64,000 bases of DNA, from positions 800,001 to 864,000 of the forward strand of contig CAVZYA010000002.1 of assembly GCA_963779415.1 (NCBI GenBank), in the 5' to 3' direction. The DNA is from an uncultured Acidobacteriota bacterium. GTDB taxonomy: Bacteria; Acidobacteriota; Thermoanaerobaculia; UBA5066. The position numbers and the translations under genes are program-made. The notes beneath the pieces are model-generated. The model made no database searches, was not told where the DNA came from, and saw only the letters and a program-made list of their open reading frames with translations. This document shows, piece by piece, positions 14,344 to 30,653 of this stretch; the stretch's first letter is position 1; the number at the start of each line of letters is the position of its first letter.

Positions 14344-14945
14344 GCGACAGCCGGCCGGGGAGGGCGTCGCCACTCCCGGAGCGCGTAAACGCAGAGAACG
14401 AGGAAGACGACGTAGAGGAGCGCGGTCAGCTCGAGGCGCTGGACGAGGAAGAGCCCGACGTAGCCGACGTCCACGAGGATCCAGACGATCCAGCACTCGA
14501 AGACCTTCCGCGCCTGCAGCCACTGCGCCACGAGGCTGAACGCCGTCAGCGTGGCGTCGGGCCAGGGGTTCGAGGCGTCGGTCCGCGCCGCCATGAGGGC
14601 GCCGAGGGTGAGGCTCACCCCCGTCCCGGCGACTCCCCAGAGGGCCGCCGCGCGGCCGGAGAGCCGCGTGACGGGAAGCGTGTCGTGCCCTTCGCCCGTC
14701 CCTTTCCACCAGTGAAACCATCCGTAGAGCTGGAGGACGAGAAAGACGAACTGCAGGCCCATGTTCGCGTAGAGCCGCGACTGGCCGAAGACCCACGCGT
14801 AGGCCGAGACGCAGACGATCCCCGCCGGCCATCCCCAGACGCTCTGGCGCGCCATGAGCCAGACGGAGAGGAAGCCGGTCGTGGCGCCCAGCATCTCCCA
14901 CGGCGAGGCGCCCAGAATGCCGTGGAGAAGATCGGCCGCGCTCAC
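14340..14945 (-). CDS. pnuC: Nicotinamide riboside transporter
   Basis: WGWPAG, LYGWFHW, DATLTAFSLVAQWL, ECWIVWILVD. Confidence 0.9.
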   Translation of the reverse strand: MSAADLLHGILGASPWEMLGATTGFLSVWLMARQSVWGWPAGIVCVSAYAWVFGQSRLYANMGLQFVFLVLQLYGWFHWWKGTGEGHDTLPVTRLSGRAAALWGVAGTGVSLTLGALMAARTDASNPWPDATLTAFSLVAQWLQARKVFECWIVWILVDVGYVGLFLVQRLELTALLYVVFLVLCVYALREWRRPPRPAVA

Positions 14946-14955
14946 GAAGGGCGGC

Positions 14956-15981
14956 TCAAAGGCGCGGGGCGAATCGTTCGCCGCGAACGGGCTCGGCCGA
15001 GGGGACGAAGGTGCCGTTCTTGAGGACGTTCGAGAAGACGAGCGGCCAGCCGTTCCCCTTTCCCGGCTCGGAGGCGTCCTGAAGGTGGACGTGAAGGCTC
15101 GGCTCGAGGCCGCGGCCGCTGCTCCCGACCTGCGCGAGGGGGTCGCCGGCCTTCACCTTCTCTCCCGGCTTGACGACGACGCTGCCGCTCTTCAGGTGGA
15201 GAAAGAACGCCCAGACGTTCCGGCCGAGATCGAGGACGACGAAATTCCCTTCCGGCTCCGCGTCGCGGTCGATCTTTCCGGGGACGCCGTCGGGACGGCT
15301 GCCTTCGACGGCGACGACGGTTCCGGCCGCCGGGGCGAGGACGCTCTTTCCGAACGCGAAGAACTCCTCGTTCTTCGTCCCGGATCCGGCGAACGTTCTA
15401 CCGTCCTTCACGATGAAGAAGTCGGCCGCGAATCGCTGGTCCCGGTAGAGGGCGTGGAAATTCGACCAGACCGTCCGCCCGCCCCACCAGACCGTCCACT
15501 CGCCGTCGAAGGGGAGCCGGAGCGACACTTTCGGCGGCTCGTCCGCGTGTGGCGCCGGAGCCTCGACGGGAAGGCGCCGGGGACCGAGCGCCGTGATCTC
15601 GTCGTTCCGGTCGAAGTCCCACGGGATCGCGACAGGCGTCTTCGACTTTTCGAAGGTCGCGATCCGGAGATACCTTCGGGCGCCGGCGAGGCTGTCGGTC
15701 TTCTCATCGAGAACCGCCGTCTCCTTGCCGAACGCCTCCTTCCAGGAGTTGCGGAGGAGCTCGAGGCGGGAGGGGGCCTCGACGAGGCTTCGCTCCGCGG
15801 GAGAGAGCCGCTTCCAGATCTCGGCCAGCTCGCCGCGATAGAACGCCTGCGTCAGGCGGCGCCCTTCGGCGAGCGTCGCGTCGGAAGCTGTAGCGGCGGG
15901 AGGCGCGGGGCGGGGCGATTCCTTCGGCGGCACGGCCGCGAGGACGAGCGGGGCGAAAAGCAGGAGCGGGCGGACGATCAC
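14956..15981 (-). CDS. Secreted M23 family peptidase-like protein
   Basis: GGAGG RBS plus GTG, signal peptide, DQRFAADF, GNFVVLD...HLK, GSSGRGLEPSLHVHLQD. Confidence 0.8.
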   Translation of the reverse strand: MIVRPLLLFAPLVLAAVPPKESPRPAPPAATASDATLAEGRRLTQAFYRGELAEIWKRLSPAERSLVEAPSRLELLRNSWKEAFGKETAVLDEKTDSLAGARRYLRIATFEKSKTPVAIPWDFDRNDEITALGPRRLPVEAPAPHADEPPKVSLRLPFDGEWTVWWGGRTVWSNFHALYRDQRFAADFFIVKDGRTFAGSGTKNEEFFAFGKSVLAPAAGTVVAVEGSRPDGVPGKIDRDAEPEGNFVVLDLGRNVWAFFLHLKSGSVVVKPGEKVKAGDPLAQVGSSGRGLEPSLHVHLQDASEPGKGNGWPLVFSNVLKNGTFVPSAEPVRGERFAPRL

Positions 15982-16074
15982 GGGAATCCTCCTCGGGTTT
16001 TCAGGGCGCCCGGTGGGAACGCCGCATCCGGCTATGGTAACGGGCCGGGCTGCGGGACGGGTACCATCAGGACT

Positions 16075-17448
16075 ATGTCGGAAGTCCCCCCGCCCGTGCC
16101 CAGTCCCGGATGGTCGAACCTCGAGGCCGTCTTCGAATCGCTCGGCCGGGTCCTGATCTCTCTCGACGACCAGTTCCGGATTCTGCGCGCGAGCCGGACG
16201 CTCGATACCCTCGCGGGCGAGGGCGCGTCGACGGCCGTGATCGGAAAGCCGATCGAGACCCTGATCGGCGCGCGCCTGTTCGGGCCGGAGGACTCGCTCC
16301 GCGAGGCGCTTCAGGAAGGCCGCCGCGAGGAGGGCCGGCGCGGGGTGCTCCACTGCGGCGAGGACGCGGCGCGCCTCGTCTCCGTCACGACGGCCCCCGT
16401 CGCCGAGAGCGCCGTCAGCTCGTGCGACCCGCGGGCCCGGTACCTCGTGGTCCTTCGCCCCGCCGAGGACGACGACTCGATGCTGCAGAGCGCCATCGCG
16501 ACGCACGGCCTCGTCGCCCGGTCGCGTCCGATGATGCGGATCGTCCACCTCGTCGAGTCGCTCCACCGAAGCGACGCGACGGTCCTCATCACGGGCGAGA
16601 GCGGGACGGGGAAGGAAGTCATCGCGCGGGCGCTACACGCCCAGTCGACGCACGGCGGAGGGCCGTTCGTCCCCGTGAACTGCGCGGCCCTTCCGGGCGA
16701 GCTCCTCGAGAGCGAGCTGTTCGGGCACGTTCGCGGGGCGTTCACGGGGGCCGTGAAGGACCGCGTCGGCCGTCTCGAGATGGCGAGCGGCGGCACGCTC
16801 TTCCTCGACGAGGCCGCGGAGATCCCGCCGAACGTGCAGGTCAAGCTCCTCCGGGTCCTTCAGGAGCGCGTCTTCGAGCGGGTCGGCGAGAGCACGTCCC
16901 GGCGCCTCGGCGCGCGGATCATCGCGGCGACGAACGCGGACGTGCAGGAGGCGATCCTCAGCGGAAAGCTCCGGGAGGACTTCTACTACCGCCTCCGGGT
17001 CGTCCCGATACACATTCCGCCGCTGCGCGAGCGGCCGACGGACATCGAGCTGATCGCCCGGCACCTTCTCGCCCATATCGGAGGGCGCGAGGGACGCTCG
17101 CTGCGTCTCTCCCCGGACACGCTCGCCGTCCTTGAGGCCTGCCCGTGGCCCGGAAACGTCCGCGAGCTGGAGAACGCGCTGGAATACGCGGTCGCGATCT
17201 GCCGCGGGCAGACGATCCACGTCGAGGACCTCCCCCTCGAGATCCAGACCCCGCGACGCGCGACGGTCGAGCCCCCCGCGCCCCGGAGACTCGCGGAGGA
17301 AGCGCCAGGGGCGGAGGGAGAGGAGCAGAGGATCCGCCGCGCGCTGGAGCGGAACATGTGGAACCGCTCGAAAGCGGCGGCCGCGCTCGGGATGAGCCGG
17401 ACGAAGCTCTGGCGCCGGATGCGCGAGCTTCGCATCGGCTTCGCCTGA
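16075..17448 (+). CDS. PAS-domain sigma54-dependent transcriptional activator (Fis HTH)
   Basis: GESGTGKE, ESELFGHVRGAFTGA, WPGNVRELEN, C-terminal AAAALGMSRTKLWRR. Confidence 0.93.
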   Translation: MSEVPPPVPSPGWSNLEAVFESLGRVLISLDDQFRILRASRTLDTLAGEGASTAVIGKPIETLIGARLFGPEDSLREALQEGRREEGRRGVLHCGEDAARLVSVTTAPVAESAVSSCDPRARYLVVLRPAEDDDSMLQSAIATHGLVARSRPMMRIVHLVESLHRSDATVLITGESGTGKEVIARALHAQSTHGGGPFVPVNCAALPGELLESELFGHVRGAFTGAVKDRVGRLEMASGGTLFLDEAAEIPPNVQVKLLRVLQERVFERVGESTSRRLGARIIAATNADVQEAILSGKLREDFYYRLRVVPIHIPPLRERPTDIELIARHLLAHIGGREGRSLRLSPDTLAVLEACPWPGNVRELENALEYAVAICRGQTIHVEDLPLEIQTPRRATVEPPAPRRLAEEAPGAEGEEQRIRRALERNMWNRSKAAAALGMSRTKLWRRMRELRIGFA

Positions 17449-17494
17449 CCCGGGGCCGGTCTTCCCGCAAGACCAGACGATCTCGAAACTCCGC

Positions 17495-17529
17495 TTGACT
17501 TCCGGGAGTTATGAACATATGTTCATAAC
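17495..17529 (+). promoter_or_regulatory. sigma70 promoter overlapped by a perfect 22-bp palindromic operator (17508-17529)
   Basis: TTGACT (17495)-17 nt-TATGTT (17518); GTTATGAACATATGTTCATAAC is its own reverse complement. Confidence 0.8.
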
Positions 17530-17563
17530 GGTTGGCTGAGAGATCGCCAGCCGAAAAGGCAAC

Positions 17564-17962
17564 GTGCCCAGACCCACGCACCTCCGGCAAGTCTCGCTTC
17601 GGCCTTCGATTAAAGGCTTCAAGCCGATCGGTATTCCGATGTCGGAACTCGAGATCCTCTCTCTCCAGCTCGACGAGCTGGAAGCGATCCGGCTGACGGA
17701 CCGGGAAGGCCTTTACCAGGAGGAGGCGGCCGCGAGGATGGGCGTCTCGCGCGTCACTTTCGGTCGGATCCTCTGGGAAGCCCACGAGAAGGTGGCCAGA
17801 GCGCTCTTCGAAGGGAAGGCGCTCGTCATCGGAGAGGGGCCGGTGAAGTTCGAGCCGGGGGTGCGCGGGGTCTGTGCCGTACATGGAGGTCCCCGCCGGC
17901 GCGGCCGCGCCTGCCGGTGCGGACGTGATCCGAGATTGGCGCGGCAAGGAGAAAGGTCATGA
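17564..17962 (+). CDS. DUF134 (UPF0251) HTH DNA-binding protein, copy 1
   Basis: MPRP...FKPIGIP...LDELEAIRLTDREGLYQEEAAARMGVSRVTFGRIL...GKALVIG; Cys/His tail CAVH...CRC. Confidence 0.9.
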   Translation: MPRPTHLRQVSLRPSIKGFKPIGIPMSELEILSLQLDELEAIRLTDREGLYQEEAAARMGVSRVTFGRILWEAHEKVARALFEGKALVIGEGPVKFEPGVRGVCAVHGGPRRRGRACRCGRDPRLARQGERS

Positions 17963-18258
17963 TGAACGAGAACAATTTCAATGGCCGTGGCCGGTGGCAT
18001 TCGTCTTCGGTCACAGGAACAATCGGCGTGGGCCAGGGGGGCCCCCCCCGCGGGGGCGGGCGCGGCCGGTGCTTCGGCGGCGGGCGCGGTGAGCGCTGCG
18101 CGACAGATGGGCCCGGTCAAGCCGGGTCCCGGCGCGGAAGCGGCTCTCCGTGGAATCTGATGGAGGCGCTCGAGAGGCGCGTGGCGGAGCTCGAAGCGCG
18201 CGTCACTATCCGGCCCGAGCCTTCCGGCAGCGATCCGGACGCCCAGGAGCGTGGGTAA
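17959..18258 (+). CDS. Gly-rich small protein, DUF5320-like
   Basis: GGGRGRCFGGGRG followed by coiled coil LERRVAELEAR; ATGA overlap with DUF134. Confidence 0.55.
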   Translation: MMNENNFNGRGRWHSSSVTGTIGVGQGGPPRGGGRGRCFGGGRGERCATDGPGQAGSRRGSGSPWNLMEALERRVAELEARVTIRPEPSGSDPDAQERG

Positions 18259-19303
18259 TCCCCTCCCGGAAGCCGTAAAGGGGGCCGGCGCCGTCCTCGC
18301 CGATTCGACCATGATCACCGGGTTCGTCTTCGTCATGATGATCCTGGTCGAATACGGACAGGTCGTGACGGCAGGCCTCCTTGGCCGCTGGCTCCAGCGA
18401 GGGGGTCTTCTCCGGACGGCCGCGGTGGCCTTCGTGGGAACCGTCCCGGGCTGTCTCGGCGCTTTCACGGACGTCACCCTCTACATCCACCGGCTCATCT
18501 CCTTCGGCGCCCTCGTGGGAGCCATGATCGCGGGGAGCGGGGACGAAGCCTTCGTCATGCTCGCCCTCTTCCCGAAGAAAGCGCTTCTCCTTTTCGGGCT
18601 GCTCTTCCTTTACGGGCTCCTCGTTGCGCTGCTCGTCGACAGGCTGGGCCGCCCCCGGTACTACGGGTGCGACTCCTGCCCCGACGGCATCGCGCTCCAC
18701 CCGGAGGAGCTCGCCCTTCCGAGAGAGGCTCTCCTGCGCCGCTCGTTCGGGGCGTGCAGCTTTCCGCGCGCGGCGCTCTGCGGGGCGCTGACGCTCTTCC
18801 TCGCGGCGGTGGCGGCCGGGTGGGTCGGCCCCTCCGAATGGAGCTGGGTCCGGGGGACGATCCTCGCCGTCACTCTGCTCGCGCTGATCGTCGTCTTCCT
18901 CGCACAGGAGCACTTCCTCGAGGAGCATCTCTACCGTCACGTCGCCCGAAAGCACCTTCCGAGGATCTTTCTCTGGGTCGTCGGGATCCTCCTGGCGCTC
19001 GCCCTCTTGAAGGCGGCCGACCTCCCCCTTCAGGAGTGGATTCGAAGCCACCGGGGGTGGGCGCTCGTCGCCGCCGTACTGGTCGGTGTCATACCGGAGT
19101 CGGGCCCCCATATGGTTTTCGTGACCCTCTTCGCGCAGGGGGCCCTCCCCTTCTCGGTCCTGGCCGCGTCCTCGGTGGTCCAGGACGGTCACGGGATGCT
19201 CCCTCTCCTGGCGGAGTCACGATGGGAATTCGTCAAGGTCAAGAGCGTCACGGCGACGGCGGGGCTCCTCCTCGGGGGACTCCTGATGGCGCTGGGACAT
19301 TGA
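18251..19303 (+). CDS. Putative metal (Mn/As) transporter, DUF2899/ArsP_2-like
   Basis: GTVPGCLG, SGDEAFVML, EHFLEEHL, GVIPESGPH, VQDGHGMLPLL. Confidence 0.8.
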   Translation: MGNPLPEAVKGAGAVLADSTMITGFVFVMMILVEYGQVVTAGLLGRWLQRGGLLRTAAVAFVGTVPGCLGAFTDVTLYIHRLISFGALVGAMIAGSGDEAFVMLALFPKKALLLFGLLFLYGLLVALLVDRLGRPRYYGCDSCPDGIALHPEELALPREALLRRSFGACSFPRAALCGALTLFLAAVAAGWVGPSEWSWVRGTILAVTLLALIVVFLAQEHFLEEHLYRHVARKHLPRIFLWVVGILLALALLKAADLPLQEWIRSHRGWALVAAVLVGVIPESGPHMVFVTLFAQGALPFSVLAASSVVQDGHGMLPLLAESRWEFVKVKSVTATAGLLLGGLLMALGH

Positions 19304-19317
19304 AAGGAAGAAGTGAG

Positions 19318-19764
19318 ATGGGTGAGAAGTTGAAGATCGGAATCGTCATCTGCGGCCGCTATGGAACCTGCGCGGGCGGGAAGTGTTTCCGAGCCCTCCG
19401 CGAGCGGGAGGGGGCGTTCGCCGCGTATGCCGGACGCGACGTGGAGCTCGTCGGCTTCGCCACCTGCGGAGGCTGTCCCGGCGGCAACATCGAGTCCGCC
19501 CCCGACGAGATGAAGCGAAACGGTGCCGAGGTGATCCACCTCGCCACGGGCTTCGTCGTCGGCTATCCGCCTTGCCCGTACCTCGATCACTTCGTCCGGA
19601 TGATTCCCGAGAAGTTCGGCCTGAAGGTCGTCGTGGGGACTCATCCCGTCCCCCAGAAGTACTTCCGGATCCACGAGAAGCTGGGAACGTGGGAGGGCCC
19701 GCGTTGGGAAAAGCTCCTGAAACCGACTCTCGGAGATGAGTCCGTCCGGCTCGCTTACGACTAG
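19318..19764 (+). CDS. CGGC-domain protein
   Basis: KIGIVIC...CAGGKCF...GFATCGGCPG...YPPCP...VVGTH. Confidence 0.88.
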   Translation: MGEKLKIGIVICGRYGTCAGGKCFRALREREGAFAAYAGRDVELVGFATCGGCPGGNIESAPDEMKRNGAEVIHLATGFVVGYPPCPYLDHFVRMIPEKFGLKVVVGTHPVPQKYFRIHEKLGTWEGPRWEKLLKPTLGDESVRLAYD

Positions 19765-19877
19765 GCTCGTCCGGGGACGGTCCCCGGCCGGGCCGGCCCA
19801 TCGGGTGACCCGGGCGTAACATGAAATTTTCCCCTCGCGGTGACCTGACCGCGGATCGACGGGCGAAGGAGGCAACG

Positions 19878-20381
19878 ATGGGAAGCAAGGGACGCCAGAT
19901 CGTCGGGATCGACGTGAAGAAGCTGCTCCGGATGCTCAACGCAGCCTATGCGAGCGAGTGGCTCGCGTACTACCAGTACTGGCTCGGGGCCAAGCTCGTG
20001 AAGGGGCCGATGAAGGACGCCATCGCGGCGGAGCTGACGCTCCACGCCACGGAGGAGCTGAACCACGCCACGCTGTTGACGGGCCGGATCATCCAGCTCG
20101 GCGGCACGCCGGTCGTCGACCCGAAGGAGTGGTTCACGCTGAGCCCGTGCTCCTACGACGCGCCGGCCGATCCCTACGTCTCGGTGGTCCTCGACCAGAA
20201 CATCGCGGGCGAGCAGTGCGCCATCACGGTCTACAACCAGCTGATGAAGGCGACGAAGGACAAGGACATGGTCACCTACAACCTCGCCCTCACGATCCTC
20301 GAGCAGGAGGTCGAGCACGAGGAGGATCTCCAGAGCCTCAAGGAGGACCTCGACCTGATGGTCACGCGCGGGAGCCGGTAG
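19878..20381 (+). CDS. Ferritin-like / Dps-like (DPSL) protein
   Basis: LNAAYASEWLAYYQYW, EELNH, GEQCAI, EVEHEED; AAGGAGG RBS. Confidence 0.88.
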   Translation: MGSKGRQIVGIDVKKLLRMLNAAYASEWLAYYQYWLGAKLVKGPMKDAIAAELTLHATEELNHATLLTGRIIQLGGTPVVDPKEWFTLSPCSYDAPADPYVSVVLDQNIAGEQCAITVYNQLMKATKDKDMVTYNLALTILEQEVEHEEDLQSLKEDLDLMVTRGSR

Positions 20382-20433
20382 GAGCCTTTTCCCGTTCGGA
20401 GCGGCCTTTCGTGGGCCGCCCCGGACATTCTCG

Positions 20434-21454
20434 TCAGTAGCTGGTCTCGTCCAGGACGACAGGGCCCCGGAAGCGGCTGTAGATGAAGGCGGTGTAGCCG
20501 AGGACGAAGGGCATCCCGACGAGGGCGATGACCAGCATGGTCTTCAGGGTGAGCGGAGAGGACGACGCGTTCTGGACCGTCAGGCTCCGCGAGGGATCGC
20601 CGAGCGCGGGGACGAGGTTCGGAAAGAGGCCCTGTCCCATCACGGCGATCAGGAGCGCGATGGCCGCCGACGAGGCGAGGAACGCCGCTCCCGGACGCCC
20701 GCGAGCGAGGAGCAGGGGAAAGGCGGCGAGGGCGACGACGAAAAGGGCCGGCGCGATCCAGGCGGCGGGATGGTCATACGCCTCCCAGAGGTGCCGGGCG
20801 GCGACGCGGGAGAAGAGCGTCACGGCGAGCCAGAGGACGACGAACGCCCCCCAGGCGGCGCGCGCCGTGGCGCGGGCGCGGTCCCGGAGCGCTCCTTCCG
20901 TCTTGAGATTGAGCCATGCCGCTCCCTGCATGACGAACATCGCGACGCCGAGGAGCCCCACGGCGAGAGCGAACGGGTTGAGGAGCGTGAAGAAAGTTCC
21001 CGCGTACTCGCCTTCGGCGTCGAGCGGTAGCCCCCGCACCACGTTTCCGATCGCGACGCCGAAGAGGAGCGCCGGGAGAAAGGAGCCGAGCGCGAACGCC
21101 GCATCCCACGCGGAGCGCCAGGCGGGGCTCTTCTCCTTGCTCCGGAACTCGAGGGAGACCGCCCGCAGGATGAGGGCCAGAAGGACGACCATCAGCGCGA
21201 GGTAGAGGCCCGAGAAGACCGTGGCGTAGACCGCGCGGGAAGGCCGCGAAGAGCGCTCCGCCCCCGGTCAGAATCCAGACCTCGTTGCCGTCCCAGACGG
21301 GGCCGACGGCGTTGAGCAGGATCCGGCGTTCCCGGTCGTTCCTCGCCAGGAAGAGATGGAGCGTCCCGACCCCGAGGTCGAAGCCGTCCAGGATCGCGTA
21401 GCCCACGATCAGGACGCCGACCAGGAGGAACCACGTCGTCTGGAGGTCGGGCAT
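20434..21454 (-). CDS. cydB: Cytochrome bd oxidase subunit II (frameshift near 21235)
   Basis: [43 protein letters not shown]. Confidence 0.93.
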
Positions 21455-21472
21455 CTCAGGCCTCCCTCGGGG

Positions 21473-22811
21473 TCATCCGGGGCTCGCCGGCAGGTGGTCG
21501 TCGCCCTCCGGTCCGTGGAGGACCTCTTTGTTGAGGATGTGGATCCAGAGCGCGAAGAGGAGGAGGTAGATGAGCGAGAACAGGACGATCGAGAAGAGGA
21601 CGTTTCCGGCCGGCACGCTCTTCGAAACCGCGTCCTTCGTCTTCAGCACTCCGTAGACGATCCAGGGCTGACGCCCGACCTCGGCCGTCATCCAGCCGAG
21701 CTGGATGGCGATCGTCGGGAGGGGGATCGACCAGAACATCGCCTTTTGCCACCAGCGGGTCGTCTCGAGCGTCCCCTTCCGCATCAGGAAGACGCCGATC
21801 AGCGCGAGGAGGAGCATGACGTTCCCGACGATGACCATGTGGCGGAAAGCGAGGAACGTGACGGCGATCGGCGGCCACTCTTCCCGCGGGAACTCCGAGA
21901 GCCCCCGGACGGGCGCCTGGAAGTTTCCGAAGGCGAGGAACGAGGTGAGGTTCGTGATCATCACCTCCGGCCCTTCCTTCTTTTCGGTCTGCGACGGCGG
22001 GAGCGACCAGAGGATGAGAGGCGCGCCCTTCTCCGTCGTGTAGAGACCTTCCATCGCGGCGAACTTCGCGTACTGGGTATGAGCCACCTGCTTGGCGTGG
22101 CGGTCTCCCGTCGCGAAGCTGGCCAGGATGCCGACGAGGGAGAGGACCGTCGCCCAGCGAAGTGAAGCCCGGGCGACGTCGGAGCCGCGCTCTTTCAGGA
22201 AGTACCACGCGGAGATCCCCGCGGCCAGGAACCCGCCCGCCACCCAGGCCGAGGCGATCGTGTGGACGTAGCGTGGCAGGGTCGACGGGTTGAAGACGGC
22301 CTCGGCGAAGCTCGGTCAACTCGGCGCGGCCGCCGGCGAGCGTGTAGCCCGCCGGGGTCTGCATCCACGAGTTCGCGACGATGATCCAGAAGCCCGAGAG
22401 GTGCGAGCCGAACCAGACCATCACGGCGGCGAACCACCGCGTGGTCGAGGAGATCCTTTTTCTCCCGAAGAGGAGGAGGCCGAGGAACCCGGATTCGAGG
22501 AAGAAGGCGAAGACCCCCTCGGCGGCGAGCGGCGCGCCGAAGATGTCGCCGACGAAGCGCGAGTAGCCTGCCCAGTTCGTCCCGAACTGGAACTCCATGA
22601 CGATGCCGGTGGCGACGCCGACGGCGAACGTGACCGCGAAGATCTTGAGCCAGAAGTCCGACATCCGCCGGTAGAGGTCCTTGCCGGTCCTCCAGCGGGC
22701 CGTCTCGATCGCCGCGATGAAGAGCGCCATTCCCATCGAGATCGGCGGGAAGAGAAAGTGGAACATCACCGTGAGCGCGAACTGGATCCGTGCCAGAAGT
22801 ACCGTGTCCAT
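21473..22811 (-). CDS. cydA: Cytochrome bd oxidase subunit I (frameshifted near 22310-22240)
   Basis: LARIQFALTVMFHFLF, MEFQFGTNW, AFFLESGF, KFAAMEG, EVGRQPW. Confidence 0.93.
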
Positions 22812-22883
22812 CTCGATCAGGCCCTTCCGGGGCCCCGGCCCCGTGCGACGAAAGCTGCGGACGCGACGAAGCGGCTCTTCGTG

Positions 22884-24081
22884 TCAGCAGCCGCCCTGGA
22901 TCTTTTTTACCACTTTCGGTTTCTTCTGCCCCGTGGCCTTCGCCTCCTGGATCATCCTGAGGATCTCCGACCGGGCCGACTCCCGGAACCTCTGGACGTC
23001 GCCGGCCCATCGGCCTCCCGTCGAGACGAGGAGGATCGGCTGGAGGATAGTCCTGTCGAAGGCGGGAAAGCCTCCCGCAAGGAGGGTGACGTTCTCGTAC
23101 CCGAGCTCGGAGAGGAGAAGGGCCGCCGATCGCTCCTGGGCATCGTCGACCCCGACGACGACCTTCTTCAGGTGGCGCGGGCCGAGGACCTCCCGCCACT
23201 CCTTGCCGAAGAGATCCCGGATCGAGGCGTTCACCGAGCCGGGCAGCGGAAAGGCGGCGAAGGCCTTGGGGTCCCTCAGGTCGACGATCTTCATCTGGGG
23301 CTCGCGGTCGACGATCCGGAAGGCGAGTTCGTCCACCGTCATCACCTTCACCGGGTGCGCGGCGGCGAAGGCCGGGTTCGAGACCTTCGCGAGGAGACGC
23401 GCCTTGTAATCGGGGACGAAGAGGAGCAGGACCCCCACCGCGAGAAGGCCGGCGCCCGCCACGCCGGTGCGTGGCGGCGGGGAACCGGAGAGACGGGGCC
23501 CCCGCGGGGTCCACCTTCCGCTCGATCCACGTCGTCACGGCAAAGGCGAAGACGGCGATCGCGATGAGAAGGAAGGCGAAGACGCCGGCCGGCATGTGAA
23601 GGGACTGATAGACCGTGAGCGGACCGAGGAAGGTCGAATCGTCGAACTTCTGGACCCTCGGATAGATCTCGGCGAATCCGAAGATGCCGAGGAGCCCGCC
23701 GCCAACGAACGCCATCGCGTCCACCTTCCCGATCGCGGCGGCGCAGACGCTCGTCCCGGGGCAGTAGCCGCCGAGAAGGAAGCCCACGCCCATGATCGCG
23801 CCCCCCACGATGGCGGGGGCGAGCCACATCGGATTGACGAAGATGACGTCGAGGTCGAGAAGCCCCGCCGATCCGAGGAGAAGGACACCCGCCATCGCCG
23901 TGGCGGCGGCGGTGAAAAAGACCCGAAGGACGGTGAAGTCGTATCCGTAGAAGACGCCAGCGAGCCGTCGGGACGACGAGAAGCCCGCCTGTTCGAGGAC
24001 CGCACCGAAGCCGATCCCGAGGACGAGGGCGACGACGAGGTTGAGCTGGTCGGAGATCAGGTCGGGAACGAACGGACCCAT
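22884..24081 (-). CDS. YeeE/YedE sulfur transporter domain fused to a rhodanese-like domain, ending in GGC (frameshift near 23465)
   Basis: GFGAVLEQAGF, GGYCPGT; then IVDLRD...LPGS...LGYENVTLLAGGF; ends KKIQGGC. Confidence 0.8.
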
Positions 24082-24085
24082 TGCG

Positions 24086-24616
24086 TCACCCCTTCGTCTT
24101 CTGTCCGAGCCAGAGGCCGCGGACGAACCAGGCCAGCAGGTATCCCGTGCCGAAGATTGCGAGCATGGTGACGAAGCCCGCGGTCGACAGGACGGCCATC
24201 CCGCTCAGCGCCGCGCCGCTCGTGCACCCGCGCGCCAGCTGGGCGCCGATGCCGAAGAGCGCCCCGCCGGCCGCCGCGAAGACCCACCGTGTCTTCGTGG
24301 AGACGCGGGGCCCGGCTTCCGTCACGAGCTTCAGGCGATCGGAGACGACGCCCGAGAGGAAGGCGCCGATCAGGACGCCCGCCATCTCGAAGACGAGCCA
24401 CGTCTTCAGCGGGCTCTCCTGTCCGGGACCGACATAGTGCGCATAGAAAGGGGAGGCCTGCGCGTGGGCCGGCGCCACGCCGTCGACCGCCGCGACGACC
24501 ACGCTCTTGAGCGCGCCGCTCGCGCCGAGCCCGCGGCCCGTGACGAAGATGGTCGCCAGCAGGACCATGCCGAGCAGGAACCCGGCGAGGTAGGGATCCA
24601 TGTATTTCTTTCTCAT
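24086..24616 (-). CDS. YeeE/YedE family membrane protein
   Basis: PYLAG, GRGLGASG, GAQLARGCTSGAALSG. Confidence 0.88.
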   Translation of the reverse strand: MRKKYMDPYLAGFLLGMVLLATIFVTGRGLGASGALKSVVVAAVDGVAPAHAQASPFYAHYVGPGQESPLKTWLVFEMAGVLIGAFLSGVVSDRLKLVTEAGPRVSTKTRWVFAAAGGALFGIGAQLARGCTSGAALSGMAVLSTAGFVTMLAIFGTGYLLAWFVRGLWLGQKTKG

Positions 24617-24626
24617 CGGACGCCTT

Positions 24627-25298
24627 TCATTCGGCCCCGGCGGACGCACGCAGCGGAGCGGCGGGTGCCTCGGCCGGGAATCGGGATGGCGTGTCTCTCT
24701 CCAGCACCTCGTAGCCGGTGATCATCGCCTTCAGGTTCGACGTCACGGTGCGGCCCGTCGTCATCAGGTAGAGGTGGGCGACAAGGAAGGTCAGGAGGAG
24801 GAAGGCTCCCGCCGTGTGGAGGACCGCGATCGTCTCGAGGCTCCGGACGTTGAGACCGAACACCTCGTTGCGCTGAGGGTACCGGTAGAACATGTAGAGA
24901 AGCCCCGAGACGACGACTACCGGGATGACGAGGAGCTTCAGTCCGGCGTAGGTCAGCTTCTGGAGGGGGTTCAGCTTGGAAAGGACGGTCTTCTTCGTCG
25001 GGTGGGGCGCGTTCCGGAAGATGCCGAAGATGTAGTAGTCCGCCTGCGCCCGCAGGTTCTCCCAGGTCGGGATGTACTGCCTCCACTCTCCCGTCGTGAA
25101 GTGCCAGAAGATCGCGAAGACGATCAGGACGAGGAAGCTCCAGGCGGCGACGGCGTGGTAGCGGACCGCGTGCTCGAACCCGAAGAAGCGAATCGAGCCG
25201 TGGATCTCGAAGCCCGTCACCGCGAGGAAGAGGATGAGGGCTGCCTGGGCCCAGTGCCAGAACCGCTCGAACGACCGGTAGACGTACTCGCGCTTCAT
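24627..25298 (-). CDS. Cytochrome b (Ni-hydrogenase/PhsC-like membrane anchor)
   Basis: FERFWHW, GFEIH, KLNPLQKLTY, LHTAGAF...AHLY, AMITG. Confidence 0.88.
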   Translation of the reverse strand: MKREYVYRSFERFWHWAQAALILFLAVTGFEIHGSIRFFGFEHAVRYHAVAAWSFLVLIVFAIFWHFTTGEWRQYIPTWENLRAQADYYIFGIFRNAPHPTKKTVLSKLNPLQKLTYAGLKLLVIPVVVVSGLLYMFYRYPQRNEVFGLNVRSLETIAVLHTAGAFLLLTFLVAHLYLMTTGRTVTSNLKAMITGYEVLERDTPSRFPAEAPAAPLRASAGAE

Positions 25299-25299
25299 T

Positions 25300-26868
25300 T
25301 CACTTCGCTCCCTTCCCGTTCTTGCGGAATGCGAACCGGGCCCCGCCGTGGATCACGACGCCGGCGAGGGTGACGGCGAGGAAGGCGATGCCGGAGCGGT
25401 CGACCCACGGGCTGCGGTCCCGCCCCGGCATGTAGAAACCCCCGAGCTGCGCCAGCCGCCCGCCCGTGCGCGCGTGACACTCGGTGCAGGTGACGGCCTT
25501 TCCCTTCGGGGCGATCATGTGGTTGACGGGCCAGTACATCTCCGTCCGGGCGAAGGCGTAGTGGCCGCTGTACGGAAGGCCGATGTCCTTCATCCCTTCC
25601 TCGGCCGCCCGTTCCCAGTTGAACTCCGCCCAGTAACCCCCGTCGCCCGGGTGAGACGAGTAGAGCTTCGGCTGGATCAGGTAGTCGTTCCCCTCGTCGT
25701 AGATCTGGCTGGCGCGGTGGATCTTGACCGGGACGATCTTCGAGTCCGGGTCGTCGTAGCTGCCGTCGAGCGGGTTCAGGACGAGGGGCACTTTCGGGTC
25801 GAACTTGTCGCCGATGAGGTAATGCGAGGCCGTCCCGTTGAACCAGATGTAGTCGGGCTTGATGTTCTTGCCCCAGACGAACGACCCCTTGATCGACATG
25901 TAGACGTCGGTCCCGCTGGCGTCCTTCTCCTCGTACGGCTCGCCGTCCTTCAGCTTTCCCGCCGCCGACCAGTCCCACGCGAGCTTCGTCGGATTGACCT
26001 TCGCGTAGGTGGGGATGTGGCACGTCTGGCAGGCGACCTTGTAGGTATGGTCGTTCAGGACGTCGTCGGCGTGCGGCATCGCCGTGTGGCATGTCTCGCA
26101 CTCCACGCGGTTCCGGTTCATCGAAGAGACCGAGTACATCTTCCCGAGCATCTGGTGCTTTTCGGCCGTGTGGCAGTCGACGCACTGCATGTCGAGTCCG
26201 TCGGTGGCCATGTGAACGTCGACGTCGCGGGTCGTGTCGAAGAGGGCCATCTCCAGGTCCCCGTGCTTGACGTTGTTCCCGCCGCCGCCGAAGAAGTGAC
26301 AGGTACCGCAGTTCGTCCTTTGCGGCCTGCCGACGTGCTGCGCGACGTTGGTCAGGTTGACCGAAGGGTCGGGCATTCCCGCCCCTCCCGCAGCCTTCAC
26401 GTACGTGGACGTGTTGTCGTGGCAGGCGAGGCAGTCGACGTTGAGCGGGTCCTTCAGGTCGAACGTCGCGTCCGCCCAGCCGTAGCCGATGTGGCATTTG
26501 TCGCAGCTTCTCTGGCTGCCCGAGACCCCGATGCAGAAGTTGTTCAGGATGTTCCTCTTGCCGACCTCGCGGATCCCCTTGCCTTCGATGTACTCCGTCC
26601 GGTCCCAGTTCCAGTGCGAGGACTTCATCACCTCCGCAGCGCGCCCGTTGTGGCAGGAGATGCACGCGGCGGTGACGTCCTGGGGCCTCTTGAAGGAGAC
26701 CTTGAGTTGCGCGAAGCGGGAGTGGTCGACCGACGACTTCGACTTGTGCGAGAAGCGCTCCTTCAGCTTCGAAAGGGGCGTCTCCTCGGAGACGTTCTTC
26801 CTGAGAGCGCTGTAGGCGAGTCCCAGGATCGCGGCGAGGGCCAGAAGGGTTGCGAAGATTCGTTTCAT
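25300..26868 (-). CDS. Octaheme c-type cytochrome, tetrathionate reductase (OTR) family
   Basis: Signal anchor plus 8 CxxCH motifs (CISCH, CDKCH, CLACH, CGTCH, CVDCH, CETCH, CQTCH, CTECH); GK-xx-ILNNFCI; FFGGGGNNVKHGDL; C-terminal TM helix. Confidence 0.92.
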   Translation of the reverse strand: MKRIFATLLALAAILGLAYSALRKNVSEETPLSKLKERFSHKSKSSVDHSRFAQLKVSFKRPQDVTAACISCHNGRAAEVMKSSHWNWDRTEYIEGKGIREVGKRNILNNFCIGVSGSQRSCDKCHIGYGWADATFDLKDPLNVDCLACHDNTSTYVKAAGGAGMPDPSVNLTNVAQHVGRPQRTNCGTCHFFGGGGNNVKHGDLEMALFDTTRDVDVHMATDGLDMQCVDCHTAEKHQMLGKMYSVSSMNRNRVECETCHTAMPHADDVLNDHTYKVACQTCHIPTYAKVNPTKLAWDWSAAGKLKDGEPYEEKDASGTDVYMSIKGSFVWGKNIKPDYIWFNGTASHYLIGDKFDPKVPLVLNPLDGSYDDPDSKIVPVKIHRASQIYDEGNDYLIQPKLYSSHPGDGGYWAEFNWERAAEEGMKDIGLPYSGHYAFARTEMYWPVNHMIAPKGKAVTCTECHARTGGRLAQLGGFYMPGRDRSPWVDRSGIAFLAVTLAGVVIHGGARFAFRKNGKGAK

Positions 26869-26924
26869 CTGTCGTCGTCCTATTCGATCGGGTGTCTCGG
26901 GGCAAGCGACCGCGTCACCTTCCA

Positions 26925-26940
26925 TTCAAGAAGAGCGCCA
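26925..26940 (-). promoter_or_regulatory. Putative sigma54 -24/-12 promoter for the OTR-cyd operon
   Basis: TGGCGC-TCTTC-TTGAA versus consensus TGGCAC-N5-TTGCW, about 57 nt upstream of the start; the -12 is non-canonical (GA). Confidence 0.5.
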
Positions 26941-27145
26941 GAGGGGTTGGAGGAGACTTCCGAGCGAATACCTCCTGTGAATCGGCGTGCGAGACCTATC
27001 GTTTGATCCGCCGGGGCGCGACGTGCGGGGACGCTGAACAGTGCGAAACGTTTCGACGTGGACACCCTGTCGCAACAGAGTGCGCGCCGGGCACGGCTCG
27101 CCCGATGGTGATCGAAACAAGTCCGTCGACTTTTTCTCTTTCCTT

Positions 27146-27167
27146 ATTACGAGCATATGCTCATAAT
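27146..27167 (+). promoter_or_regulatory. Second copy of the DUF134-associated palindromic operator
   Basis: ATTACGAGCATATGCTCATAAT (one mismatched pair), 8 nt before the DUF134 GTG; contains a CATAAT -10-like hexamer. Confidence 0.8.
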
Positions 27168-27175
27168 GCTCGATC

Positions 27176-27559
27176 GTGCCTCGACCTTCCTGCCTCCGCC
27201 ACGTGACCTGCCGCCCGTCGGCGCCGCTCTTCAAGCCTGCCGGCATCCCGGCCACCCTTCTGGAGGAGATCGTCCTGACGCTCGACGAACTCGAGGCCCT
27301 TCGCCTCGCGGACCTCGAAGGTCTTCATCAGGAGGACGCCGGCGCCCGGATGGGGATCTCCCGCCCGACGTTCGGCCGCGTCGTCGAGGCGGCCCGGCGA
27401 AAGGTGACGGAGGCGCTGACGGCCGGGAAGGCCCTCCGGATCGAGGGAGGGCCGGTCTGCCCCTCCGGGCGGCCGCGGGGCCGCTGCGCGGCCTGCAGCT
27501 CCGGCTCGACAGCATTACCGGTAACTCGCCAGGGACCCGAACGAAAGGAGCCCAAATGA
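27176..27559 (+). CDS. DUF134 (UPF0251) HTH DNA-binding protein, copy 2
   Basis: MPRPSCLRHV...FKPAGIP...LDELEALRLADLEGLHQEDAGARMGISRPTFGRVV...GKALRIEGG; CxxC in tail. Confidence 0.92.
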   Translation: MPRPSCLRHVTCRPSAPLFKPAGIPATLLEEIVLTLDELEALRLADLEGLHQEDAGARMGISRPTFGRVVEAARRKVTEALTAGKALRIEGGPVCPSGRPRGRCAACSSGSTALPVTRQGPERKEPK

Positions 27560-27960
27560 ATCTCTGTCTTCCCATCACCCGAAACCTCGGACTGAAGAGC
27601 CCCGTCAGCGCGCACTTCGGCTCTGCGCCGCTCTTCCTCGTCGTCGACACCGAAAGCGGGAGGTGCCGCGAGATCCCGAACCGCAACCAGCACCACGCCC
27701 ACGGGATGTGTCAGCCCCTGGAGTCGCTCGCCGGAGAGCGCTTCGACGGAATCGTCGTTGGAGGAATCGGCCAGGGAGCGCTCGGAAAGCTCCGGGCGGC
27801 CGGTATCCGGGTCTTCCTGGCAAACGCCTTCACCGTCGAGGAAGCGGTCGCGGCGCTCACGTCGGGCGCTCTCGAGGAGGTCTCCCCGGCCACGGCGTGC
27901 GCAGGCCACGCTCACGAAGGGGCGGACCACACCCATAGGTTGACCTTGCCGACGCATTAG
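27556..27960 (+). CDS. NifB/NifX-family (FeMo-co binding fold) protein
   Basis: VSAHFGSAPLFLVVD, HHAHGMC, VGGIGQGA, His-rich tail; ATGA overlap with DUF134. Confidence 0.88.
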   Translation: MNLCLPITRNLGLKSPVSAHFGSAPLFLVVDTESGRCREIPNRNQHHAHGMCQPLESLAGERFDGIVVGGIGQGALGKLRAAGIRVFLANAFTVEEAVAALTSGALEEVSPATACAGHAHEGADHTHRLTLPTH

Positions 27961-28014
27961 AGAAAGTGCTCCCGGCCGGGGAGCGCTGGTACGCATCTCG
28001 CAGGGACTCCCGGC

Positions 28015-28320
28015 GTGGACGGGGAAAACCTGCTTCCGGGAGAGCGCCTCTGCGAAGGTTCCGACTGGACGCCCGAAGCCGCCGCCGTGGCGGCCGGTCG
28101 GCGCGGAATTCATCTCACGCCGGTCCACTGGCAGGTCCTCGGCTGCGCGCGCGAGGAGTGCCTGAGGACGCGGCACGTACCCGACGCCCGCACGCTGGCG
28201 TTGAGGACCGGGATTAGCCGGGACGAGATCGAGCGCCTCTTCCCGGGAGGTGCGTGGGCCGTCATTGCGGAGATTGCGGGGATGGAGCCCCCGAAAGGGG
28301 CCCACGACCCGACGACCTGA
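28015..28320 (+). CDS. TusE/DsrC-like protein lacking the C-terminal cysteines
   Basis: DWTPEAA...GIHLTPVHWQVL...R...LFPGG...IAGMEPP. Confidence 0.7.
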   Translation: MDGENLLPGERLCEGSDWTPEAAAVAAGRRGIHLTPVHWQVLGCAREECLRTRHVPDARTLALRTGISRDEIERLFPGGAWAVIAEIAGMEPPKGAHDPTT

Positions 28321-28381
28321 CACAAATCCCGATCGAACGAACCGCGGACCCGGCAGGCCCGCCTTTGAGAGGAGTGCCTCG

Positions 28382-29637
28382 ATGAAATCCCGGATGACCT
28401 TCGCCCTCGCTATTCTCTTCACCATCGCCGTCGCCGCCCCCGCCCTCGCGACCGACGGCTACTTCCAGCTCGGCTACGGCACGCCGTACGTCGGGCAGGC
28501 GGGCGCCGGCGTCGCGCTCTCGCTCAACACGATGGCTCCCGCCACGAACCCGGCCGCGAACGCCTTCGTCCTCGGGTACGACGTCGACCTCGGCTTCTTC
28601 AACCCGAACCGCCAGTTCACGGTCACGGGGAACCCTTCCGGCTACCCCGGCACCTTCGGCCTGCAACCCGGAACCGTGAAGAGCGGCAATTCCCTCTTCC
28701 TCGTCCCCGGCCTCGGCGCCAACTGGAAGCTGAACGACACCATGACGCTCGGCGTCGCGATCTACGGCAACGGCGGCATGAACACGAGCTACGCCGAGTC
28801 GGTCTTCTACGCCGGCCGGACCGGAGTCAACCTCTCCCAGATGTTCATCGCCCCGACGTTCACGATCACGGTCGCCAAGAACCACGCCTTCGGCGTCACC
28901 CCGATCGTCTCCTTCCAGCGCTTCCAGGCCGAGGGCGTCCAGAGCTTCGCCCCCTTCTCGTCCAGCCCGGGAGACCTCTCGAACAAGGGCTACGACGAGT
29001 CCTTCGGCGTCGGGCTCCGGGTCGGATACCTCGGGAAGCTCACCCCGTGGCTCTCCGTCGGCGCCTCCTACCAGACCGAGACCGAGATGGCCAAGTTCAA
29101 GAACTATTCCGGCCTCTTCGCCGAGCAGGGGGACTTCGACATCCCGTCCAACTGGACCGTCGGGCTCGCCGTCAAGCCGGTCGAGAGCCTGACCTTCGCC
29201 TTCGACGTGCAGGAGATCTACTACAGCCATACCGAGTCGATCGGGAACCCGATGCTCCCGAACCTGATGACGGCGCCGCCTCGGCGACGACGGCGGCGCG
29301 GGCTTCGGCTGGCAGAACGTCACCGCCTACAAGTTCGGCGTCCAGTGGATGGCGGCCGAGGGACTGGCCCTCCGGGCGGGCTACGCCTACGCGAAGCAGC
29401 CGATCCCCGAGTAGCGAGGTCCTCTTCAACATCCTCGCGCCCGGCGTCATCGAGCAGCACGTCACGGCCGGCGTCAGCAAGTGCCTCGGCAAGAAGGCCG
29501 TCCTCCACTTCTCCGTCGTCCGCGCACTCTCCCACTCCGTCACCGGTCCGAACCCGCTCGAGGCCCCCGGCCAGCAGACCATCGAGCTGAAGATGGACCA
29601 GTGGCTCTTCGACATCGGGGCGTCGTTCGGCTTCTGA
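28382..29637 (+). CDS. FadL/TodX-family outer-membrane transporter (frameshifts near 29280 and 29410)
   Basis: Signal peptide, TDGYFQLGYG...GAGVA...NPA, YGNGGMNT, GDFDIP, C-terminal F. Confidence 0.85.
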
Positions 29638-29706
29638 CCTCGAGAGCAGCGACTCGCACGTTCTTCCGGGCGGCTCGTCGGGTACTCTCGGGGCCGGGGA
29701 GGAATC

Positions 29707-30631
29707 CTGACGACGCAAGCCCAGGGGCACGGCCATGCCCCTCCCGCACTCTCTTTGGACCGGAGACTCTGGCTGGGGGTATTTCTCAACGTCCTCATCA
29801 CGGCCGCGGAGGTCATCGGCGGTCTCGCGAGCGGAAGCCTCGCGCTTCTCTCCGACGCTCTTCACAATGCGAGCGACGTCGCCGCTCTCCTTCTCGCGAT
29901 CGGGGCCCGGGCCCTCGGCCGCAAGGCACCGACGACGCGCTTCTCGTACGGGTTCCGGCGTCTCGAGGTCGTTGCCGCGCTCGTCAATGCGGCGGTCCTC
30001 GTCGGCCTGACGGTGCTCGTCGGGAGGGAGGCCATCGGGCGGCTCGGACATCCCTCGGCCGTGAACGGACAGACGATGCTGGCCGTCGCGCTGGTGGCGT
30101 TCGTAGCGAACGTGGCGGCCGTCCTCCTCCTGGGACGGCACGAAAAGCACGACCTGAACGTCCGCGGAGCCTTTCTCCACCTTCTGCAGGATGCGTCTCG
30201 CCTCCCTCGTCGTCGTCGTGGTGGCGCTCCTTGCGGGAACACGACACGGTCCGTGGCTCGACCCGGCCGCTTCGCTCCTGATCGGCGCCGCGGTCGTCGT
30301 CAGCGCGGGACGGTTGATCTGGGAGAGCGTCCGGATCCTCGTCGAGGCGTCTCCCTCCGGTCTGGACGTCGAGGAGCTGGCGGCGGGACTCGACGAGGCC
30401 TTCGCTCCGGCCCGGTTCCACCACCTCCACGCCTGGACGGTCGGCCCCGGGCAGGTGGCCCTCACCGCTCACGTGAAGCTGGAGGACGGAAGCCTCGAAG
30501 AGATAGAGAGACTTCTCGAGGCGGTCCGAAGGCTCCTCGCGGAGCGATGGGACATCCATCACGCGACGCTGGAGCCGGAGAGGGAACGCTGCTCGGGAGA
30601 CGACGTACCGGAGCGATGGAAGGCCCGCTGA
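29707..30631 (+). CDS. Cation diffusion facilitator (CzcD/ZitB-like; frameshift near 30200)
   Basis: SLALLSDALHNASD, YGFRRLE, LNVRGAFLHLLQD, HHLHAW, HHATLE; start uncertain (29707 CTG or 29755). Confidence 0.88.
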
Positions 30632-30653
30632 ACGGGGAGTCGTCCGGCCGGCG

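Follow-up and report, generated by a model that had tools for sequence, protein, structure and literature searches.

Palindromic elements as probable operators of two DUF134 proteins in an uncultured Acidobacteriota bacterium

A helix-turn-helix (HTH) dimer that represses its own operon from a palindrome on the promoter is a classical principle of regulation. According to the available part of its description (PMC11229326), DeoR of B. subtilis (SorC family, DeoR subclass; PDB 7bhy, 8r7y) is a repressor with a sigma-70 region-4-type HTH whose dra-nupC-pdp operator overlaps the promoter. EnfR/Tfx of Thermococcus onnurineus (TON_1525; PDB 8hno) is, in the accessible portion of PMC10570040, a small repressor that has a sigma region-4-type HTH, dimerises via its non-HTH part and binds a pseudo-palindrome on the promoter. 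Repressors of the ArsR/SmtB type, as covered by the accessible sections of PMC8790569, are local and autoregulated, control metal export and storage, and are released by ligands at Cys/His sites, and the orp clusters of D. vulgaris, which hold NifX-like 'orange protein' relatives, are placed under OrpR and sigma-54 in the available part of PMC8359166. DUF134 (PF02001) is a large family without an assigned function, and its NCBI model is itself named 'hypothetical protein'. Here we describe two palindromes that each directly precede a DUF134 gene in a 64-kb stretch of the genome of an uncultured Acidobacteriota bacterium (genome G000; G000:C2:800001-864000, referred to as the window). The two palindromes are probably the operators of the DUF134 proteins encoded just downstream, a reading based on comparison of sequences; an earlier note on this DNA had proposed them as DUF134 binding sites, and this is supported by enrichment, co-occurrence, joint absence, covariation and promoter position. 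What is new is the family, the operator and the predicted residue-to-base rule.

The elements in question are the following.

17508..17529: candidate operator 1, GTTATGAACATATGTTCATAAC, a perfect 22-bp palindrome with the -10 hexamer at its centre
17495..17523, + strand: sigma-70-type promoter-like site TTGACT-17-TATGTT of operon 1, from a promoter scan
17564..17962, + strand: DUF134 copy 1, 132 amino acids (aa), GTG start; PF02001 79.5 bits
27146..27167: candidate operator 2, ATTACGAGCATATGCTCATAAT, a 22-bp palindrome with a single asymmetric pair, C27150 vs A27163
27176..27559, + strand: DUF134 copy 2, 127 aa, GTG start; PF02001 78.2 bits

Inspection of the sequence and the promoter scan confirmed what had been noticed earlier, namely a perfect palindrome over the -10 of a TTGACT promoter and a near-identical second palindrome before copy 2, the latter with one pair asymmetric. 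Operator 2 ends 8 nucleotides (nt) before the GTG start of copy 2, and the arms of the two sites differ symmetrically (GAAC/GTTC vs GAGC/GCTC), so that the change is indeed compensatory. A search with the pattern TTAYGARCATATGYTCRTAA at up to 3 mismatches, with 100 shuffles as control, matched the window twice and none of the shuffles, and nowhere else in the 64 kb, operon interiors included, did a site reach 14/20; there are no weaker operator copies at this level, in agreement with the earlier statement that the window holds no further copy. The same search of the whole genome (4,359,815 bases in 3 contigs, 68% G+C) returned both operators and one 3-mismatch match at C3:243146, and GA[AG]CATATG[CT]TC occurs exactly twice genome-wide. 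Both operators directly precede the only two DUF134 genes found in a six-frame search of the genome. The genome-wide consensus scan that the note had proposed therefore left only two good sites in 4.36 Mb, each at a DUF134 gene; of the regulon that it had postulated, the two DUF134-led operons stand, and no further genomic site was added to them. The match at C3:243146-243165 (L003:1501-1520) was rejected as a third site, being non-palindromic with 3 mismatches, and was treated as chance; it overlaps a TTGACG promoter-like stretch just 5' of a small open reading frame (ORF) that starts at about L003:1523. The hexamer CATATG is strongly avoided in this genome, with 44 copies in 4.36 Mb vs about 320 estimated from base composition alone; the window holds 3 copies, 2 of them inside the operators. 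In relatives, the identical 22-mer of operator 1 precedes the copy-1 orthologue in G022 and a 17/20 version precedes that in G012, where operator 2 also has an orthologous site, TTTCGAGCAAATGCTCATAA, at an unchanged distance to the gene; G177 and G143 carry TTACGAGCATATGCTCATTA, which is similar to operator 2.

The earlier note had held that the idea would fail if the motif were not enriched before DUF134 genes elsewhere. In a first set of 80 DUF134 loci from one-genome-per-species contigs (Acidobacteriota, Planctomycetota, Deltaproteobacteria, Elusimicrobia, Spirochaetota, Omnitrophota and others), enrichment was found: the highest score against TTATGARCATATGYTCATAA within the 200 nt 5' of the DUF134 start was at least 15/20 in 58 of the 80 loci, vs 9 of 1704 other 200-nt windows of the same loci, and at least 4 of these 9 control matches head DUF134-containing operons (L027 at -2433, L074 at -839, L087 at -791 and L019 at -2415). 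The nearest public loci are titled Acidobacteria or Acidobacteriota metagenome-assembled genomes. Among 41 relatives searched at up to 3 mismatches, the motif was present in 3 of 7 DUF134 carriers (G000, G012 and G022) and in none of 34 non-carriers. A wider sample consisted of an even set of 201 genomes of the phylum, tallied by hand, in which a genome with DUF134 above the cut-off counted as a carrier; DUF134 was carried by 43 of the 201, and the motif was found in 26 of the 43 carriers vs 16 of 158 non-carriers. The non-carrier rate can be attributed to chance, because a reversed-pattern control gave matches in 18 of the 201 genomes. The site lay less than 100 nt upstream of the DUF134 match in 21 of the 26 motif-bearing carriers, within 2 kb in two (G176 and G177) and elsewhere in three (G070, G143 and G206). 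Five other DUF134 genomes of 4.7-6.2 Mb each contain a single site, at the DUF134 gene.

Comparison with close relatives provided a natural deletion or insertion. In G012, a genome of another genus, the whole 16-kb arrangement is syntenic, both operons included. In the same-genus genome G001, a cytochrome gene adjoins the genes from the NifX-like to the FadL protein, and the DUF134 gene and the palindrome are both missing, while the NifX-like gene, its ribosome-binding site and an upstream CGAAACGTTTCG are kept. G001 lacks both gene and site; therefore, the DUF134 gene and its operator were gained or lost as a unit. In operon 1, the ferritin gene at 19821-20381 shares 95% DNA identity with G022:C55:65800-66316 and G244:C2:73778-74293, from another genus, and among the matches listed none from the same genus covered the DUF134, permease or CGGC parts of the operon. 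Judged by these sequence matches, the DUF134-led operon 1 looks mobile and recently transferred within the family.

Both DUF134 copies pass the PF02001 gathering cut-off of 27 bits, covering 89-90 of the 98 model positions, and both GTG starts yield the family N-terminus M-P-R-P. The family pattern is present as M-P-R-P...FKP-G-P followed by the HTH LDExEA-RL-D-EGL-Q--AA--MGVSR-TF-RI, and R3, P21, D37, E40, L44, D46, M59, S62, R63 and T65 are invariant over 97 aligned sequences. The recognition helix reads SRVTFGRIL in copy 1 and SRPTFGRVV in copy 2. With 65.8 and 65.9 bits against a cut-off of 115 for NCBIfam NF003257 (PRK04217, equivalog, 'hypothetical protein'), the copies are, by sequence score, related to that model but not equivalogs of it. 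An AlphaFold2 (AF2) model of copy 1, built from the 97-sequence alignment, was confident over residues 11-90 (block means of 89-98 for the predicted local distance difference test, pLDDT) and showed three helices with short flanking strands forming a sigma-70 region-4-like HTH, followed by a tail that is disordered past residue 100 (pLDDT 38-55). Structural matches, used as a guide to what the protein works like and not as evidence of family membership, were obtained with VIA to sigma-70 region 4 (Z 6-7.1) and to EnfR (Z 6.6, root-mean-square deviation (rmsd) 1.6 Å over 52 residues); LuxR/GerE-type domains and the operator-bound DeoR DNA-binding domain were further neighbours. The C-terminal tail of copy 1 is CAVHGGPRRRGRACRC, with the pattern C-x2-H-x9-C-x-C, and its clade keeps the tail motif C[PA]VHGGPRRRGRxCxC; copy 2 has Cys at 6, 12, 95, 103 and 106. 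Among 159 unique DUF134 proteins, 153 have a tail Cys, 98 have CxxC...CxxC and 29 have C[PA]xH.

Covariation between the recognition helix and the operator was examined after adding a second set of 80 metagenome loci, fetched with the Asn-type alignment (helix motif SRxTF(G/A)(R/N)I). Of the combined 164 loci, 132 have an exact CATATG within 200 nt upstream, which gave 123 unique protein/site pairs: 75 of Arg type, with the consensus TTATGAGCATATGCTCATAA, and 48 of Asn type, with TTATTAGCATATGCCAATAA. The correspondences were as follows.

Asn in place of R68: half-site position 5 always T (96/96 half-sites)
Arg, as in R68: position 5 is G in 121 half-sites, A in 28 and T in one, out of 150
Val after SR (position 64; copy-1 clade): A at position 7 in 18/18
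Gln after SR (position 64): G at position 7 in 147/148

In a hidden Markov model (HMM) alignment, VSRVTFGRIL of DUF134 falls on ISRPTVSRLL of the B. subtilis DeoR DNA-binding domain (E 0.063), and R63 and R68 align with two DeoR arginines five residues apart, which were equated with R34 and R39 of the published structure on the assumption of a 2-residue numbering offset. In the accessible part of that work, DeoR R39 contacts bases T14 and G4 of ATTGAACAAAATTTCAAT, and R34 contacts T12 (PMC11229326). G4 of the DeoR half-site ATTGAAC corresponds to G5 of DUF134 TTATGAAC, the base that changes with R68, and the covariation gains weight because the aligned DeoR arginine contacts the corresponding G. 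At L200 (G193:C2:538150-538750), a DUF134 gene coding for an SRPTLTRI helix is preceded by two tandem sites with the centres CTATAG and CTATGG, a hint that residues in the places of F66 and G67 recognise the middle of the operator. GAAC is kept for copy 1 and GAGC for copy 2 in both G000 and G012. Strict insulation of paralogues by their operators was considered and rejected, as G080 has two Val-type paralogues that both have GAACATATGTTC; there may be cross-talk between DUF134 paralogues.

The position of the sites relative to promoters suggests how they could act. TTGACT-17-TATGTT is the sole promoter-like match in 17300-20600 (0.3 expected) and is conserved in the orthologous loci L007 and L006. 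In 111 of the 123 unique regions, a TTGAC occurs no more than 45 nt upstream of the site, at three preferred distances from CATATG.

14-16 nt, 39 regions: the site covers the spacer and its right arm is the -10
21 nt, 25 regions (and one at 20 nt), copy 1 included: the -10 is the palindrome centre
32-37 nt, 41 regions, the bulk of the Asn-type loci: the site is just behind a separate -10

Repression is favoured because all three positions would exclude or block RNA polymerase, and autorepression is, on this sequence evidence, the likely mechanism. The earlier proposal that DUF134 autorepresses both operons is supported at site 1, which lies on the core promoter; at site 2, repression is suggested by analogy only. 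Alternatively, DUF134 could bind the palindromes as an activator or dual regulator, perhaps recruiting sigma region 4 or taking its place. A sigma-70 region 4 fold would fit such a role, and the absence of a consensus promoter from site 2 would suit an activator-dependent promoter. We consider it unlikely, as the -35 element TTGAC stands at fixed distances from sites that lie over the spacer, the -10 or the start, and the centre of the site 1 palindrome is the -10 hexamer itself. Spacers of 16-17 nt are also unlike those of MerR-type activated promoters, which are 19-20 nt long.

Several points weigh against assigning the palindromes to DUF134, or against the mechanism proposed for them. No good site lies within 200 nt of the gene in 22 of the 80 loci, and in the phylum sample 17 of the 43 carriers gave no match even with 3 mismatches allowed. 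Among the relatives, the four carriers of genus g2 also have no match at up to 3 mismatches and show only a degenerate GGGCATATGC, which heads a ferritin-like/DUF134 gene pair or precedes the DUF134 gene. The Asn/T covariation, though perfect, amounts to 1-2 evolutionary events and has no meaningful p-value: in a quick tree, built with the trait column included, the Arg/Asn and the G/T switches each required 2 changes, with 1 independent pair on supported branches. The structural matches are all weak, with no Foldseek match to the PDB at E up to 0.001 (best 0.065) and no VIA match at Z of at least 8, and dimerisation of DUF134 is inferred solely from the symmetry of the site. At site 2, no consensus sigma-70 promoter was found (0 matches in 26900-31100). 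Two other classes of regulator have operators of similar core: GAAC-N4-GTTC fits the consensus of Firmicute-type LexA boxes, and the 12-2-12 repeats of ArsR/SmtB proteins have the same core TGAACA-N2-TGTTCA in Table 2 of PMC8790569, the accessible part of which gives AATACCTGAACA-GA-TGTTCAAGTATT as an example.

With this core in common, the palindromes could be operators of an ArsR/SmtB sensor encoded elsewhere, DUF134 being merely the first regulated gene. Operons 1 and 2 do encode an ArsP_2 permease and a cation diffusion facilitator (CDF) exporter, and in G044 a look-alike, ATATGAGCAGATGTTCATAT (L182:1501-1520 = G044:C61:5810-5829), lies upstream of an ArsR/SmtB-looking ORF. The C-terminus of this ORF is ArsR/SmtB-like and it stands beside an HMA-domain P-type ATPase, as read from the ORFs only; if this reading is right, ArsR-type and DUF134 operators have a common core despite their different folds. 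A sensor of this kind is nevertheless very unlikely to be the owner of the sites. The earlier note had named a Fur/ArsR-type owner as the outcome that would overturn its proposal, and none of the six ArsR-type (HTH_5) genes of the genome carries the motif upstream (best 12/20); none of the six is in the window, and three have palindromes or AT-rich repeats of their own. Nor did any HTH_5 or HTH_20 protein occur among 149 downstream neighbours, the first two ORFs after DUF134 in the 80 loci. The central TA, variable in 12-2-12 sites, is fixed here, as seen in the exact CATATG of the loci counted above; the site tracks the DUF134 gene across phyla and vanishes along with it, and the operator base changes along with the DUF134 helix.

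It is likewise highly improbable that the sites have no dedicated binder and reflect an unusually conserved promoter or a hairpin of the leader RNA. In many loci, part of the right arm does double as the -10 (CATAAT or TATAAT), and RNA folding gave -23.7 kcal/mol (z -3.45) for the site 1 region and -8.7 kcal/mol (z -2.3) for site 2. A promoter element does not account for a left arm that has no promoter role yet mirrors the right arm, nor for Asn-type loci in which the site is downstream of a separate -10. Changes between sites are symmetric (GAAC/GTTC, GAGC/GCTC, TTAG/CTAA and TTGG/CCAA), base identities and not merely pairing are conserved, and, given the promoter at 17495-17523, site 1 lies mostly upstream of the start site. 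The sites could also be taken for GAAC-N4-GTTC boxes of LexA (SOS), given GAACATATGTTC within site 1 and possible LexA boxes of the form AGAACATATGTTC(G/T) in the DUF134-less genomes G152, G171, G204 and G222. This is extremely improbable, since the 200 nt upstream of the genome's own lexA (C1:1076371-1076559) contain neither GAAC-N4-GTTC nor a CATATG palindrome, only two sites exist genome-wide with none seen at repair genes, site 2 reads GAGC/GCTC, and the association is with DUF134 and not with SOS genes.

Downstream of the two DUF134 genes, the putative operons consist of the following genes.

17959..18258, + strand: 99-aa ORF with a Gly/Arg-rich N-terminus, overlapping the DUF134 stop by 4 nt
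18251..19303, + strand: ArsP_2 family permease (Pfam: putative 10TM heavy-metal exporter); PF11449, 107 bits
19300..19764 (start approximate), + strand: CGGC-domain protein, Cys-rich; PF08821, 101.8 bits
19821..20381, + strand: ferritin-like protein, final gene of operon 1; PF00210, 88.7 bits
27556..27960, + strand: NifX-like protein (Nitro_FeMo-Co domain); PF02579, 69.6 bits
27966..28217, + strand: 83-aa ORF, no family match
28250..29590, + strand: FadL/TodX-type outer-membrane channel; PF03349, 52.4 bits
29755..30906, + strand: CDF exporter; PF01545, 101.6 bits

The NifX-like gene is translationally coupled to DUF134 copy 2, its ATG overlapping the stop (ATGA). Membership of the CDF exporter in operon 2 is uncertain, with a 165-nt gap in front of the gene in which a scan for sites of at least 14/20 detected nothing operator-like. 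Searches of Pfam (E up to 1) and NCBIfam (E up to 0.01) with the ORFs at 17959-18258 and 27966-28217 returned nothing. A small ORF likewise follows DUF134 in related loci, in the position of 17959-18258, and matches PF17253 (DUF5320) in 5 of 80 loci; the resemblance of the 99-aa ORF to DUF5320 is only an impression. An ArsP_2 gene also follows the copy-1 orthologue in L014 and L017. When the 149 downstream ORFs were tallied by Pfam family, Nitro_FeMo-Co (NifX-like) was the commonest neighbour (23 of 80 loci), followed by DUF5320 (5 loci), ParA/NUBPL or CbiA-ferredoxin ATPases and peroxiredoxins (4 loci each), ArsP_2 and ferritin (2 loci each), and CGGC, FeoA and ZIP (1 locus each). By their predicted products, both operons fit the metal, Fe-S and redox theme of DUF134 neighbours.

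Between the operons, the opposite strand (20434-26925, -) encodes subunits II and I of a cytochrome bd oxidase (cydAB), a sulfur-transport-domain protein of 628 aa and a multihaem cytochrome of 541 aa, so that oxygen- and sulfur-handling genes are flanked by both DUF134 clusters; of these, the cytochrome and sulfur-transport genes are also syntenic in G012. The palindrome CGAAACGTTTCG has 2 genomic copies, one of them about 100 nt upstream of operator 2 (window 27044-27055), and is adjoined by GCAACAGAGTGCGCGC (window 27072-27087). While CGAAACGTTTCG is kept in the DUF134-less G001, GCAACAGAGTGCGCGC is kept in G012 and a similar TTGCAAC stretch occurs in G001; the two elements may form a second regulatory site that operon 2 shares with the divergent multihaem cytochrome gene. 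On the other side of operon 1, 14854-17448 (+) encodes an 864-aa sigma-54 enhancer-binding protein with AAA+ at residues 554-720 and a terminal Fis-type HTH. Its first ~550 residues have no Pfam family, the gene ends 60 nt 5' of operator 1, and a sigma-54 activator also precedes the copy-1 orthologue in G012. No sigma-54 promoter (TGGCAC-N5-TTGC, up to 1 mismatch) was found near either operon; the sole match in the window is at 2835, with 1.6 expected.

From these observations, the following mechanism can be proposed for DUF134. The domain of about 95 residues has a sigma-70 region-4-type HTH at its core and is followed by the variable Cys/His tail; two subunits would occupy the two half-sites TTATGA(A/G)CAT of the 20-bp inverted repeat. 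Each half-site would be read by the N-terminus of helix 3 (S62-R63-x-T-F-G-R68 for copy 1), with R68 predicted from alignment and covariation to read the G of TGA(A/G)C, like the aligned arginine of DeoR. A dimer bound at operator 1 on the -10, or at operator 2, 8 nt from the start, would block RNA polymerase, so that copy 1 would shut off its own operon of small ORF, ArsP_2 permease, CGGC protein and ferritin, and copy 2 its own operon of NifX-like protein, small ORF, FadL-type channel and perhaps the CDF exporter. Gain or loss of a metal ion or Fe-S cluster by the Cys/His tail, or its oxidation, might either lift or establish repression. A function of the tail as a metal or sulfur sensor is compatible with its conserved motifs but is speculation; the tail could also hold structural zinc or form a dimer contact. 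A broader picture is possible though doubtful, in which DUF134 proteins are widespread small sensors, mostly of anaerobes, that are switched by metals or Fe-S via the tail (CxxC...CxxC and zinc-ribbon-like in most) and control Fe-S, metal-cofactor and storage modules that move with their operator, according to a code R68-G5, N68-T5 and V64-A7. If true, such a one-residue-to-one-base code could keep paralogues apart in one cell or allow re-targeting.

This query alone retrieved 3555 representatives of 50%-identity clusters at E up to 0.001, and 1444 at E up to 1e-10; beyond the carriers in the phylum sample, the family extends through many other phyla. No description of a DUF134 operator and no mention of four operator cores was found in the full-text literature searched, subscription journals and RegPrecise-type databases lying outside its coverage. 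DUF134 becomes experimentally testable through a defined 20-bp operator, a residue predicted to contact a base, and a small set of candidate targets. The candidate target genes comprise NifX-like proteins, DUF5320, Mrp/NUBPL ATPases, ferritin, metal transporters and peroxiredoxins, and work on them would also illuminate the obscure NifX-like and 'orange protein' gene clusters of anaerobes.

Set against the known systems, the locus has the theme of the orp clusters: the NifX-like protein weakly matches MrpORP (E 1.6e-5, far below the cut-off), and a sigma-54 activator gene adjoins copy 1. Control by OrpR and sigma-54 was rejected, since the OrpR site GGGCGYRTTTTGCGCCC given in the available part of PMC8359166 is unrelated to the palindrome and both operons are without a nearby sigma-54 promoter. 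ArsR/SmtB repressors are comparable by the proposed local autoregulation and Cys/His-dependent switching, but their fold is the winged helix HTH_5, for which the DUF134 copies have no PF01022 match at E up to 0.001, and the DUF134 site is unlike a 12-2-12 repeat in its fixed CATATG centre and its TTAT/ATAA ends. Sigma-70 region 4 of extracytoplasmic function (ECF) factors, such as E. coli SigE on -35 DNA (2h27), provides the best structural matches (Foldseek E 0.065-0.4), and residues 34-81 fall weakly, below the cut-off, on positions 118-165 of the sigma70-ECF NCBIfam model (E 0.001-0.004); unlike sigma factors, DUF134 has no Pfam match to region 2, has no core-binding parts, and has a palindromic target instead of a -35 hexamer. 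EnfR, with 29% identity in the superposition described above, did not appear when the PDB was searched by sequence using the DUF134 profile (E up to 1), and it differs, as far as the accessible portion of PMC10570040 describes it, in having an N-terminal HTH followed by an alpha+beta 'note-head' domain and a 36-bp AT-rich repeat of other sequence. DeoR has, in the available part of PMC11229326, an effector domain of ~250 residues for sugar phosphates, a tetrameric state and two half-operators totalling 39 bp, whereas DUF134 proteins have ~100-160 residues, an extra N-terminal segment of ~30 residues, the Cys/His tail and a single 20-bp site, and the two copies (132 and 127 aa) matched only DUF134 in Pfam and not the SorC effector domain. 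The resemblance of DUF134 to the DeoR DNA-binding domain is weak in score (Foldseek E 0.14, with 35% of 40 columns identical; VIA Z 5.0; profile E as given above); the recognition-helix motif SRxTxxR can be read in both, the DeoR half-site ATTGAAC resembles TTATGAAC of DUF134, and the DUF134 site overlaps a promoter at which repression is proposed, as does the operator of DeoR.

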